From Escherichia phage vB_EcoM_P8: a DNA stretch of 64,000 nt. The notes under the pieces are model-generated. The model was not told where the DNA came from, searched no databases, and was given only the letters and a program-made list of their open reading frames with translations. Each line of letters opens with the position of its first letter. Position 1 is the first letter of the stretch. Location of the stretch: sequence record PV390659.2. One strand, given 5' to 3'. Positions 1 to 63,298 of the stretch are shown here, in pieces. Both the position numbers and the translations under genes were made by a program.

Positions 1-1241
1 CCGGCGTTATTCAGGTTGGTTCAAACTTCAGCAAAGGAGCTATCGGTGGTATGAGAAGTGCTTCTCGTTTTAAATCTAATGATTATGAACTAGAAAGCTT
101 CCGAAATCATATTGCATTGGCTCATGCACGTTTACGTGATCCATCTATCAAGCTGCAGAGCGATATAACATATCAAGGTTCTCAAGAATATTTAAAGAAT
201 AAAGAATTTTTTGATTATAAAACTGATAAAATTTTAAGCGATCTCGCTGACATTAATATTTCTAATAGCTTTGATGTTATTAAGAAAATTATCAATGATT
301 TAGTTAAAGGTTCTAAAGCCACGCCAGACGAAAAGGTAGCTATTGTTCAATTTGTCATGAATGGCATTTATAAATTGATTAATGAGTCTGCTTCTCAAGC
401 GTATGAATATGCAAGTACTGAAGTACCCCCAAAAGGATTAACTCAGGCTGAGTCTGATGTAATTGAAGATTATTGCGCGGATTCATATGTTGAAATGAAC
501 TCGTTCCTTTTAGGTAAACCGGATTCTACTCGTGAAGAATATATGGAACGAGCTATTAAACACATCGAGACGATGGATTCTGCTTTTGCCAAAGGATCAG
601 TTCTTCCTCCAGGAACTACGCTTTACCGTGGCCAAGAAGTTACCTTTAAAACTTTACGTCATAATATTGAAAATAAAATGTTCTATTTTAAGAACTTCGT
701 ATCCACATCGCTTAAACCAAATATCTTCGGTGAGTATGGTAAAAACTATATGGCTCTAGATGATTCCAGCGCAGTATTTTCTGGTGAAGGAGAAGGTTCT
801 GTTGACGCAGAAGATTTGATGCATATGGGCAGTCACTCTGCTTATGCGAATGAAGATGCTGAAACTAGCGTAGGTATGGTAATAAAAGGAGCTGAGCGAA
901 TCAAAGTTATCGTTCCGGGTCATTTATCAGGATTTCCGTCAGAAGCTGAAGTTATTTTACCACGTGGAATTTTGCTGAAGATTAATAAAGTGAGCACGTA
1001 CATGATGAAAGAAACTGCTTATAACAAGTATTTAATCGAAGGTACAATCGTTCCTCCTTCTGAACAATTAGAAGAATCGGTATATGATGGCGATCATCTG
1101 ATGGAAACTGGTGAAGTTCGTCCAATGGCTGGATTTAATCAATTCCTTGTAGAAGAATCAAAAGAAGAGGAAAACGAAGTTTCTCAAATCTTGGCTTCTT
1201 TGGTTAACATCAACGGAATGTCTAAAAAGTTCAAGATGTAG
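1..1241 (+). CDS. alt: ADP-ribosyltransferase Alt, C-terminal portion; reading frame is open to position 1, so the gene is 5'-truncated by the window edge
   Basis: No in-frame stop upstream of M at 51; ART motifs present (LYRGQ Arg, STS, SEAEV E-x-E); position next to gene 54 as in T4. Confidence 0.8.
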   Translation, partial: GVIQVGSNFSKGAIGGMRSASRFKSNDYELESFRNHIALAHARLRDPSIKLQSDITYQGSQEYLKNKEFFDYKTDKILSDLADINISNSFDVIKKIINDLVKGSKATPDEKVAIVQFVMNGIYKLINESASQAYEYASTEVPPKGLTQAESDVIEDYCADSYVEMNSFLLGKPDSTREEYMERAIKHIETMDSAFAKGSVLPPGTTLYRGQEVTFKTLRHNIENKMFYFKNFVSTSLKPNIFGEYGKNYMALDDSSAVFSGEGEGSVDAEDLMHMGSHSAYANEDAETSVGMVIKGAERIKVIVPGHLSGFPSEAEVILPRGILLKINKVSTYMMKETAYNKYLIEGTIVPPSEQLEESVYDGDHLMETGEVRPMAGFNQFLVEESKEEENEVSQILASLVNINGMSKKFKM

Positions 1242-60086: not shown

Positions 60087-60116
60087 GTTTACTTTTCCTC
60101 TTGACTGTGGTATAAT
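60087..60116 (+). promoter_or_regulatory. sigma70-type early promoter upstream of regB
   Basis: GTTTAC at 60087..60092, 18-nt spacer, TGgTATAAT at 60108..60116. Confidence 0.6.
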
Positions 60117-60612: not shown

Positions 60613-61158
60613 ATGAGAAAAGCACTACTCGCTGGTCTATTGGCCATTTCTATGATGGCACATAGCTCCGAGCATACTTTCAGTAATGTCCAACTCGATA
60701 ACATGCGTTACGCGTATCAATTCGGGGAACAATTTTCTAAGGATGGAAAATATAAAACACACAAAAATATCCATAAAAGCGGATTAGGTCATATAATGGC
60801 TGCTATTTTATGGCAAGAAAGCTCTGCCGGAGTTAATTTAAAATCTAAACCAAAACATCATGCCTACGGAATGTTCCAAAATTATTTGCCGACCATGCGG
60901 GCAAGAGTTAAGGAACTTGGTTATAATATGACCGATGCCGAAATAAAAAGAATGTTGAATAAACGGTCCAATTCAGCTTCCTGGGCGTACATTGAACTTT
61001 CTTATTGGTTAAATATACATAAGGGCGATATAAGAAAGGCGATATCCTCTTATAATTCGGGATGGAATGTTAAAGCAGGTTCTAAATATGCTTCTGAAGT
61101 CCTAGAAAAGGCTAACTACCTTAAAAATAATAAACTTTTGGAAATAGTAAATGACTAA
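60613..61158 (+). CDS. secreted lytic-transglycosylase-like protein
   Basis: N-terminal signal peptide; SLT-like ILWQESSAG with catalytic E-S. Confidence 0.5.
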   Translation: MRKALLAGLLAISMMAHSSEHTFSNVQLDNMRYAYQFGEQFSKDGKYKTHKNIHKSGLGHIMAAILWQESSAGVNLKSKPKHHAYGMFQNYLPTMRARVKELGYNMTDAEIKRMLNKRSNSASWAYIELSYWLNIHKGDIRKAISSYNSGWNVKAGSKYASEVLEKANYLKNNKLLEIVND

Positions 61159-61492
61159 AATTTTAGTTTTATGTATAGGATTAATTTCATTTTCTGCGTT
61201 AGCAAATACATCATATACTGAAATTAGAGAGTATGTAAACCGTACTGCCGCGGATTATTGCGGGAAAAATAAAGCATGCCAAGCTGAATTTGCGCAGAAA
61301 TTAATATATGCATATAAAGACGGAGAAAGAGATAAATCAAGCAGATACAAAAATGATACTTTATTAAAACGATATGCTAAAAAGTGGAATACCTTAGAAT
61401 GTTCAGTTGCGGAGGAGAAAGATAAAGCCGCTTGTCATTCAATGGTTGACCGTTTGGTAGATTCTTATAATCGAGGATTGAGTACTAGATGA
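61151..61492 (+). CDS. small secreted protein, 113 aa
   Basis: signal peptide MTKILVLCIGLISFSALA; Cys-containing. Confidence 0.45.
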   Translation: MTKILVLCIGLISFSALANTSYTEIREYVNRTAADYCGKNKACQAEFAQKLIYAYKDGERDKSSRYKNDTLLKRYAKKWNTLECSVAEEKDKAACHSMVDRLVDSYNRGLSTR

Positions 61493-61968
61493 TTGTAAAA
61501 TATATCAAGGGCGATATTGTCGCCCTATTTCTTCAAGGTAATATTATTGCGCACGGGTGCAATTGTTTTCATACTATGGGTTCAGGTGTAGCGGGTCAAT
61601 TAGCAAGGGCCTATCCTAAAATTTTAGAAATAGATAAAACCACTACCGAGTACGGTTCTCGTGATAAATTAGGCGATATGTCTATTGTTTTTAAACATAA
61701 TCCTACAGGATTTGGTATATGCTATAACCTGTATACACAATACGAACCGGGTCCTAATCTTGATTATGGTGCTTTAGTAAACTGCATGATAGAATTAAAT
61801 CTACAGGCAGAGACCCTTTTGTTTAAACCAGTAATTTATATTCCACGCATAGGTTGTGGTATTGCTGGCGGCGATTGGGATAAGGTTTCTAAATTAATCG
61901 ACATGTTTACTCCTGATATTGATTTAATAGTGGTGGATTATGAAAGTGCATTACCCGCATCCGTTTGA
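61489..61968 (+). CDS. macro-domain-like protein (ADP-ribose binding / hydrolase fold)
   Basis: N-terminal IAHGCNCFHTMGSGVAGQL resembles the macro-domain N-x6-GGGV nucleotide-binding motif; ATGA overlap upstream. Confidence 0.5.
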   Translation: MIVKYIKGDIVALFLQGNIIAHGCNCFHTMGSGVAGQLARAYPKILEIDKTTTEYGSRDKLGDMSIVFKHNPTGFGICYNLYTQYEPGPNLDYGALVNCMIELNLQAETLLFKPVIYIPRIGCGIAGGDWDKVSKLIDMFTPDIDLIVVDYESALPASV

Positions 61969-62152
61969 TCCTAAAAACAAAGCGGAAATTATTCGACAAT
62001 GGGAACGCATTTGCCGTACTAAATGCCCAATTAATAGTCCACATGATGTAGATAAAGACTATATTGGAACATTCGTTGAATATACCTTTATTGATAAGAA
62101 AGGTCATAAACAACATGTAGAAGAATATTGCTTAAAGGTTACATGGTTATGA
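61940..62152 (+). CDS. hypothetical protein, 70 aa
   Basis: ORF overlapping the macro gene end. Confidence 0.4.
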   Translation: MKVHYPHPFDPKNKAEIIRQWERICRTKCPINSPHDVDKDYIGTFVEYTFIDKKGHKQHVEEYCLKVTWL

Positions 62153-62355
62153 GCCAAACTAGTATTCTTAAAAATGCCCATTGTGAAAAGTGTAAATGGC
62201 CAGTTGTTTTTGCTTTATGCAATGATGAAATGGCTTGTGATTTCGATTATTGGTGCTATTGCTCTAATAAAGGATGCATCAATCATAAAGGCGAAGGATT
62301 TTATTCAGGATTTTATCCTTATCCTGATTTCGTTAAAGAAGGTAAACCAAAATGA
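62143..62355 (+). CDS. hypothetical Cys-rich protein, 70 aa
   Basis: multiple CxxC pairs (CEKCKW, CYCSNKGC). Confidence 0.45.
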   Translation: MVMSQTSILKNAHCEKCKWPVVFALCNDEMACDFDYWCYCSNKGCINHKGEGFYSGFYPYPDFVKEGKPK

Positions 62356-62525
62356 ATAGTTTTGAGTTACAATATGAAGTGTTACGTGAACTTGATAATT
62401 TAATTGAACTCGCTGTTAATAAAGGTTTTGCCATTGGAATTGGTCAAAAAGATACTGATCATTTAACTATGGAAATATTTAAGCAAAAGCGAATTATTTT
62501 AAAACTTCTGGAAATTAATATATGA
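62352..62525 (+). CDS. hypothetical small protein, 57 aa, not in the ORF track
   Basis: ATGA overlaps at both ends (62352, 62522). Confidence 0.4.
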   Translation: MNSFELQYEVLRELDNLIELAVNKGFAIGIGQKDTDHLTMEIFKQKRIILKLLEINI

Positions 62526-62707
62526 GTCTGAGTAAAGAACAAAAAGATAAATTGTTTGAGCTTATCCATGAACTTCTAGATGAGCATACAGAAGCAAACA
62601 CCTTTTATGATGAATACGGCCCGCTATCTCCCGAACACCAGGAAGAATTTGCTGATCGGTTTGATAAGAAAGAAAACGAATTAATAGCTTATGTGAATAC
62701 GCTTTAA
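62522..62707 (+). CDS. hypothetical protein, 61 aa
   Basis: ORF. Confidence 0.45.
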   Translation: MSLSKEQKDKLFELIHELLDEHTEANTFYDEYGPLSPEHQEEFADRFDKKENELIAYVNTL

Positions 62708-62716
62708 GAAGGTGAT

Positions 62717-63298
62717 ATGGCGAGTTTAATTTTTACTTATGCAGCAATGAATGCTGGAAAATCTGCTTCTCTTTTGACTGCTGCGCATAATTATAAAGAA
62801 CGTGGAATGAGTGTATTAGTTCTTAAGCCTGCTATTGATACTCGCGATTCTGTCTGTGAAGTCGTTTCTCGCATTGGAATTAAGCAGGAAGCGAATATTA
62901 TTACGGATGATATGGATATTTTCGAGTTCTATAAATGGGCTGAAGCACAAAAAGATATTCATTGCGTATTTGTAGATGAAGCTCAGTTTTTAAAAACTGA
63001 ACAGGTACATCAATTAAGCCGAATTGTCGATGCATATAATGTTCCTGTTATGGCTTATGGTCTAAGGACTGATTTCGCTGGAAAATTATTTGAAGGTTCT
63101 AAAGAACTTTTGGCGATTGCAGATAAACTTATTGAACTAAAGGCAGTTTGTCATTGCGGTAAAAAAGCGATTATGACAGCTCGATTAATGGAAGATGGAA
63201 CGCCAGTTAAAGAAGGTAATCAAATCTGTATTGGTGATGAAATTTATGTTTCTTTGTGTAGAAAACATTGGAATGAATTAACTAAAAAGCTCGGTTAG
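62717..63298 (+). CDS. tk: thymidine kinase
   Basis: 193 aa; P-loop NAGKSAS; C-terminal Cys zinc motif. Confidence 0.9.
   Translation: MASLIFTYAAMNAGKSASLLTAAHNYKERGMSVLVLKPAIDTRDSVCEVVSRIGIKQEANIITDDMDIFEFYKWAEAQKDIHCVFVDEAQFLKTEQVHQLSRIVDAYNVPVMAYGLRTDFAGKLFEGSKELLAIADKLIELKAVCHCGKKAIMTARLMEDGTPVKEGNQICIGDEIYVSLCRKHWNELTKKLG

Follow-up and report, generated by a model that had tools for sequence, protein, structure and literature searches.

A JS98-type allele of the T-even macrodomain gene tk.4 (adfM) with a predicted glutamine-type active site

An A1pp (macro) domain in tk.4 orthologues was already reported in a 2006 comparison of T4-like phage genomes (PMC1524935), and the T4 RefSeq record carries the note 'Tk.4; contains A1pp phosphatase motif'. 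The role of the T4 gene emerged from HIDEN-SEQ, in which a T4 transposon library was screened on a DarTG2-expressing host: tk.4 was the sole significant hit, its read counts showed a specific drop when DarTG2 was present, and T4 became sensitive to DarTG2 once tk.4 was cleanly knocked out; the gene was renamed adfM (bioRxiv 10.1101/2025.11.20.689424). The authors propose that the protein removes ADP-ribose from DNA, and hydrolysis 'seems likely' in their words (bioRxiv 10.1101/2025.11.20.689424). In phage T2, the Tk.4 protein was detected in the infection proteome, and RIL-seq showed an interaction of the host sRNA ArcZ with the tk.4 mRNA, while deletion of arcZ left the Tk.4 level unchanged; tk.4 is mislabelled 'putative thymidine kinase' in that study (bioRxiv 10.64898/2026.06.19.733364). 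The literature searched yielded no Tk.4 protein that had been assayed in vitro.

Biochemical data do exist for other macrodomains that act on DarT products. SCO6735 of Streptomyces coelicolor, the characterised enzyme of the Gln type, hydrolyses the thymidine-linked ADP-ribose that DarT leaves on DNA at a higher rate than DarG or TARG1, and it relieves the toxicity of DarT; the Q85A exchange abolishes its activity and N27S nearly does so (PMC9411070). The mechanism proposed for SCO6735 is water-mediated, with the glutamine positioning the distal ribose, and the enzyme also inhibits DarT by direct interaction, which the catalytically dead Q85A variant still does strongly in vitro (PMC9411070). 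A mobile loop five residues longer than that of DarG and TARG1 is characteristic of the subclass formed by SCO6735 and BT1257 (PMC9411070). The chimallivirus macrodomain PhiKZ gp104, likewise called AdfM, was shown in vitro to strip a DNA oligonucleotide of the ADP-ribose attached by DarT2; mutation of N23 reduced activity, and the protein is imported into the phage nucleus (PMC13309987).

We analysed a 64,000-nucleotide stretch of the genome of Escherichia phage vB_EcoM_P8 (PV390659.2; the window), for which a preliminary description, made from the letters of the sequence, had pointed to a macro-domain-like gene within a string of small, translationally coupled genes close to tk. The open reading frame exists as described, the peptide quoted from it corresponding to residues 17-38, and the string is accurately characterised, with stop/start overlaps at its junctions. 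The gene and the features immediately around it are:

61489..61968, + strand: tk.4 / adfM coding sequence, 159 aa, ATG start, a stand-alone macrodomain of the ALC1-like class
61151..61492, + strand: vs (valyl-tRNA synthetase modifier), the upstream neighbour of tk.4 in the same coupled string (PHROG 1256, E=6.5e-40; annotation in related phages)
61489..61492, + strand: ATGA overlap of the vs stop and the tk.4 start, read from the sequence and consistent with translational coupling
61940..61968, + strand: 29-nt overlap of the tk.4 3' end with the start of tk.3, from the ORF coordinates
60088..60116, + strand: upstream of regB, the closest match to a sigma-70-like promoter (TTTACT-17-TATAAT preceded by TG, 10/12 matches; a consensus match only)

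The predicted product has a size of 17.5 kDa. Megablast found the segment in 559 phage records, nearly all of them Tequatrovirus and relatives, among which the gene is annotated as 'tk.4', 'macro domain protein' or 'phosphatase'. UFV-AREG1 and T4 have it at the same place as the window, flanked by vs and tk.3 and upstream of tk, and the ATGA junction with vs is identical in T4. Because of this position and its full-length homology to T4 Tk.4, the gene belongs to the Tk.4/AdfM orthologues of the Tevenvirinae: it is an allele of T-even tk.4, now adfM (anti-DarT factor, macrodomain). The 29-nt overlap with tk.3 is also annotated in UFV-AREG1 and JS98, whereas the overlap in T4 measures 4 nt.

The neighbours of tk.4 are regB, vs.1 and vs, then tk.3 (PHROG 2008, E=4e-41), three ORFs of 57-75 aa and tk; no darT gene is found among these neighbours in the window. 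The three small ORFs after tk.3 show stop/start overlaps at each junction before tk begins at 62717; located at 62153..62707 (+), they match PHROGs 2306, 3452 and 653, function unknown for all three. For the ORF called mechanically at 62128..62355 (+), the start is a TTG at 62128, yet the PHROG match begins only at residue 8; the true start is probably the ATG at 62149, which forms an ATGA overlap with the tk.3 stop like the other junctions of the string. Upstream, vs was the T4 gene most strongly depleted in M9-glucose compared to LB (bioRxiv 10.1101/2025.11.20.689424). Polar effects between insertions in vs and in the translationally coupled tk.4 are worth bearing in mind.

The part of the T4 map that holds this string is usually regarded as early. 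A promoter scan of the region gave no more promoter-like sites than shuffled sequences, and the site upstream of regB was the only plausible one; its consensus match would be compatible with an early promoter for the regB-vs.1-vs-tk.4 string. Map position and this candidate site together suggest early expression of tk.4. A perfect 8-bp GC-rich hairpin (AGGGCGAT-ATT-GTCGCCCT) lies at 61508..61526 (+), 17 nt into the coding sequence. Its sequence matches T4 at 100%, and its position coincides with the onset of the collapse in identity to T4. We note it as an observation and not as a regulatory element: folding of the surrounding 81 nt was not significantly stronger than that of shuffled sequences (z = -1.64). 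The hairpin could mark a recombination boundary, or nothing.

The resemblance to a macro domain, seen in the N-terminus by the preliminary description, is borne out by every comparison made. Pfam Macro (PF01661) matches Tk.4 with 33.1 bits (gathering cut-off 22) over profile positions 2-117 of 118. In a search of solved macrodomains with the single sequence, the E-values were 1e-10 for BT1257, 1.6e-9 for yeast Poa1p, 1e-7 for SCO6735, 5e-5 for Mtb DarG and 0.01 for TARG1, and with a profile of 94 homologues they became 1e-18, 7e-15, 5e-15, 9e-12 and 7e-16, respectively. An AlphaFold2 model built on the 94-homologue alignment (mean pLDDT 94.0, pTM 0.89) has the three-layer alpha/beta/alpha macro fold, and its first Foldseek matches in the PDB are TARG1, Poa1p, BT1257 and DarG, all with probability 1.0. 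The profile and structure comparison recommended at the outset thus returned a macro fold. The nearest neighbours in both structure and sequence are the ALC1-like class (TARG1, DarG, SCO6735, Poa1p), not the MacroD, PARG or viral Mac1 types.

Three stretches of the protein form the predicted ADP-ribose pocket:

61552..61593, + strand: loop 1 of the pocket, codons H22-A35 (HGCNCFHTMGSGVA), with the conserved Asn25 and a GxG motif (HGCNC...GSG)
61726..61752, + strand: codons N80-G88 (NLYTQYEPG), a beta-strand end whose invariant Gln84 takes the place of the TARG1/DarG catalytic lysine
61843..61878, + strand: loop 2, glycine-rich and diphosphate-binding by homology, codons P119-W130 (PRIGCGIAGGDW; PRIGCGIAGG)

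In alignments of 94-122 homologues with identities down to about 40%, H22, G23, N25, C26, G33, A35, D49, N80, Y82, Q84, P119, G122, G124 and W130 are invariant, and all of these except D49 fall into the two ADP-ribose-binding loops or the strand end between them. It is this conservation of pocket residues that suggests ADP-ribose binding by the allele. N25 aligns with N23 of PhiKZ AdfM and Asn27 of SCO6735. Q84 stands opposite the catalytic K84 of TARG1 in the HMMER profile alignment and, in MAFFT, aligns with the 'PTK' of DarG and the 'IGQ' of SCO6735 and BT1257; the whole motif NLYTQ corresponds to NFPTK in both DarG structures, FPTK in PhiKZ gp104, LITK in TARG1 and NMIGQ in BT1257 and SCO6735. 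The aligned counterparts of loop 2 are PRIGCGLAGG(K/T)W in BT1257 and SCO6735 and PRIGCGLDRLQW in TARG1, whose D125 is Ala126 in Tk.4 (profile alignment), so that the catalytic dyad Lys84/Asp125 of TARG1 is matched by Gln84/Ala126. Judged by these alignments, Tk.4 has a Gln-type active site in which Asn25 holds Gln84, as in SCO6735, and not the Lys-type site of DarG, TARG1 and PhiKZ AdfM. Catalysis would therefore probably be water-mediated, with Gln84 positioning the distal ribose.

The Gln motif is kept in distant phage homologues, namely those of Felixounavirus, Pakpunavirus, Aeromonas phage Aeh1 and a Vibrio phage. A tblastn search found a homologue encoded in 2,777 of 50,697 phage records from many groups, Felixounavirus and Pakpunavirus among them. 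The context of such proteins varies: in Escherichia phage wV8, gp12 has about 100 aa fused C-terminally to a Tk.4-like macrodomain, in Pakpunavirus SCUT-S2 one small gene separates it from nicotinate phosphoribosyltransferase, and in Vibrio phage D527 one small gene separates it from polynucleotide kinase; all three keep the NLY(T/G)Q motif. The allele of the window (at least 90% amino-acid identity) occurs in 312 of the 2,777 records, while the other allele, 58% identical, is that of T2 and T4. Phages with the window allele include vB_EcoM_BMB16 and the BASEL phage FriedrichZschokke, the latter at 97.5% identity.

Identity to T4, computed per gene and in 60-nt sliding windows, shows that the window allele is set into an otherwise T4-like region:

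61527..62000, + strand: divergent cassette in which identity to T4 collapses, with flanks at 96-98%

From vs.6 through vs and in tk, nucleotide identity to T4 is 96-98% (vs 96%, tk 98%). The first 38 nt of tk.4 (to 61526) are 100% identical; then identity collapses, to 66% over the whole gene and 59% over its body after the first 120 nt. At 59% nucleotide identity, the synonymous sites of the two alleles are saturated. The comparison with JS98 (genus Dhakavirus) gives the reverse picture, with 88.8% nucleotide identity in tk.4 and 57-70% in regB, vs.1, vs and tk. Since the protein is 58% identical to T4 Tk.4 inside flanks of 96-98%, and the gene about 89% identical to that of JS98, we interpret the locus as a tk.4 allele of the JS98 type within a T4-type backbone, that is, as a cassette that by sequence comparison has been exchanged between Tevenvirinae genera. 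A second replaced segment lies beside it at 62153..62707 (tk.1-tk.2), where identity to T4 tk.2/tk.1 is 50-62% with many gaps and the sequences are largely unalignable; the last ORF of that segment, 62522-62707, is 85.5% identical to JS98 tk.2. Because tk.1-tk.2 is also replaced relative to T4, the whole region is one of general plasticity, and selection acting specifically on tk.4 is not needed to explain the exchange.

A bolder interpretation, which we consider unlikely, holds that the two alleles (T4/T2-type and JS98-type, 58% identical) are functionally non-equivalent, either in substrate range or in direct toxin inhibition, and that Tk.4 represents a third, phage-specific ALC1-like subclass that is Gln-type, short-looped and acidic. 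If true, the difference in substrate range could concern further DarT variants or other nucleic-acid bases bearing ADP-ribose, and the cassette exchange at the tk.4 locus would be an arms-race signature.

We propose, with a probability of roughly 80%, that the window gene is a functional AdfM/Tk.4 allele and acts as a product-directed 'orphan antitoxin', which hydrolyses thymidine-linked ADP-ribose from phage single-stranded DNA by means of its Gln84/Asn25 pocket. Upon infection of a host with the toxin-antitoxin defence DarTG2, DarT2 attaches ADP-ribose to thymidines of the single-stranded phage DNA and blocks replication. The Tk.4 pocket, most likely through loops 1 and 2, would take up the ADP-ribose moiety, and the macrodomain would then cleave the ribose-thymine bond, which would restore the DNA. 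Because Tk.4 would act on the product, it would require neither a cognate toxin nor the toxin-binding domain of DarG. For T4, the idea of an enzyme that reverses DarT modification, raised in the preliminary description, was correct in kind and had already been published with the sensitised tk.4 knockout, and the statement there that the substrate is unknown is out of date for the T4 orthologue. That the window allele, 58% identical to the T4 protein, also protects against DarTG2, and does so via hydrolysis rather than binding, we infer by analogy. Points against the hydrolysis model are the 42% divergence from the tested T4 protein, the lack of Lys34, Lys89 and the longer loop of SCO6735, and the acidic character of the protein. 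A partly non-catalytic mode is possible, given the direct inhibition of DarT by SCO6735.

The similarity to Poa1p, together with the presence of NAD+ or RNA-repair genes near some distant homologues, could instead indicate a hydrolase of small ADP-ribose derivatives: an ADP-ribose-1''-phosphate phosphatase like Poa1p, the historical 'A1pp phosphatase', or an O-acetyl-ADP-ribose deacetylase. Such an enzyme would dispose of by-products from RNA repair or NAD+ turnover, or destroy ADP-ribose-based signals, and would not repair DNA. This function does not account for the specific DarTG2 phenotype of the T4 orthologue, and tk.4 of the window does not adjoin RNA-repair or NAD+ genes. 'Phosphatase' is moreover an inherited domain name and not the result of an assay, and both activities can coexist in macrodomains. 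We thus regard a small-molecule role in place of DNA repair as improbable.

A mainly non-catalytic protection, in which Tk.4 would bind and inhibit DarT2 or cap ADP-ribosylated sites and the rapid turnover of alleles would reflect co-evolution with toxin surfaces, is somewhat less probable still. Dead SCO6735 Q85A, which still inhibits DarT strongly in vitro (PMC9411070), sets a precedent for it; the highly divergent, exchanged cassette in a conserved backbone is what arms-race pressure predicts, and Tk.4 lacks the basic DNA-binding surface of SCO6735. However, the invariant residues are those of the ADP-ribose pocket, with the Gln/Asn pair that SCO6735 needs for hydrolysis, and Tk.4 has no counterpart of the C-terminal DarT-binding domain of DarG. 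T-even plasticity regions, furthermore, often exchange cassettes, and tk.1-tk.2 is likewise affected.

The phage also has an ADP-ribosylation programme of its own, and the preliminary description had placed Alt in the window. The stretch does contain alt sequence at 3..1238 (+), namely the 412 C-terminal codons, which encode the ART part of an Alt-like RNA polymerase ADP-ribosyltransferase (PHROG 802 at E=5.6e-124, covering 282-674 of the 674 profile positions); the remainder of the gene lies beyond the window start, by which alt is cut. Arginine is the target of the Alt/Mod enzymes and an atypical macrodomain substrate; arginine-linked ADP-ribose is cleaved by ARH-type enzymes, and to our knowledge by no macrodomain. 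That Tk.4 erases Alt, ModA or ModB marks on host proteins or RNA, a role that the preliminary description had also considered for Alt-type marks, is very improbable: the presence of alt and the activity of several ALC1-like macrodomains, including TARG1 and SCO6735, on protein substrates too speak for it, but this linkage chemistry disfavours it, T4 tk.4 reads fell specifically under DarTG2, tk.4 and alt lie unlinked about 60 kb apart in the window, and homologues occur in the 2,777 phage records over many groups, their Alt/Mod content aside.

The discovery value of this locus is small: the gene, its domain and, in T4, its anti-DarTG2 role have already been described, the macro/A1pp annotation being old and the T4 function published in 2025. 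What was deduced beforehand from sequence proved accurate. New, and of modest weight, are the divergent JS98-type allele, the Gln84 active site and the separation from DarG and PhiKZ AdfM. Our residual interest lies in the Gln-type, short-loop, acidic variant of the active site and in the allele exchange between genera.

Compared with the known systems, the window allele is closest in context to T4 Tk.4, with which it shares the locus between vs and tk.3, the fold, the length class (155 vs 159 aa) and the invariant pocket residues, including the Gln of NLYTQ. Residues 1-13 are the same in both proteins, as are 35 of the first 40, whereas identity over 155 aa is 58% (E=2e-70) and 66% at the nucleotide level, so that the alleles differ at 42% of amino-acid positions. 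Loop 2 reads GCGIAGGDW in the window allele and GAGIGKGNW in T4, and the window allele has a C-terminal extension of 4 aa. Human TARG1 (C6orf130) and yeast Poa1p belong to the same ALC1-like fold class and are top Foldseek hits (TM about 0.72-0.78) at 20-25% identity. Poa1p, a small-molecule phosphatase acting on ADP-ribose-1''-phosphate, is as similar to Tk.4 in sequence as the DNA-acting enzymes are.

DarG of DarTG2 (PDB 5M31, 5M3I, 7OMU; NF048014) comprises about 330 aa with a C-terminal DarT-binding domain, is encoded beside darT and has a catalytic lysine (Lys80 in T. aquaticus, motif PTK), whereas Tk.4 has 159 aa, the macro part only, and Gln84. NCBIfam NF048014 scores 27.7 bits (equivalog cut-off 250) over model positions 2-138 of 338, and the PADLOC DarG model matches at positions 3-144 of 329, its N-terminal macro half; neither model finds a counterpart of the DarT-binding domain in Tk.4. 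A DarG equivalog is ruled out by the match to the macro half only, a score far under the cut-off, and the lack of both the catalytic lysine and a darT neighbour. Nor was a darT found beside a cellular relative, as an orphaned-antitoxin origin might lead one to seek, in the one bacterial homologue examined, a stand-alone protein of Pelagimonas (40% identity) encoded among housekeeping genes.

PhiKZ gp104 resembles Tk.4 as a stand-alone phage macrodomain that counters DarTG2 (for Tk.4, in T4 only), in the name AdfM and in the loop-1 Asn. BLASTP, however, aligns the two in merely two short patches (E=0.001), the alignment gives 22% identity, and gp104 is DarG-like (E=9e-25 to Mtb DarG), with the Lys motif PTK where Tk.4 has YTQ. 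Membership of Tk.4 in the PhiKZ AdfM family is ruled out by this low identity and by the Lys-type, DarG-like nature of gp104, and the name AdfM therefore covers two macrodomain lineages, which phages recruited independently.

SCO6735 and BT1257 of Bacteroides (PDB 5E3B, 2FG1/2AFC) have in common with Tk.4 the Gln at the catalytic-Lys position and the loop-1 Asn, at 26-27% identity. Both carry an insertion of 5-6 residues after the Gln, whereas Tk.4 has a short loop like TARG1 and DarG. The DNA-positioning Lys34 of SCO6735 corresponds to Ser32, and Lys89 falls within the loop that Tk.4 lacks. Tk.4 is acidic (pI 5.0), in contrast to SCO6735 and BT1257 (pI 8.4-9.5; SCO6735 9.5) with their electropositive surface. 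Full membership in their subclass is ruled out by the missing extended mobile loop, Lys34/Lys89 and basic surface. Since the Tk.4 family has a Gln in place of the catalytic Lys of DarG, the natural mechanistic model for Tk.4 is nevertheless SCO6735, and not DarG, with which the T4 protein was compared in the preprint.
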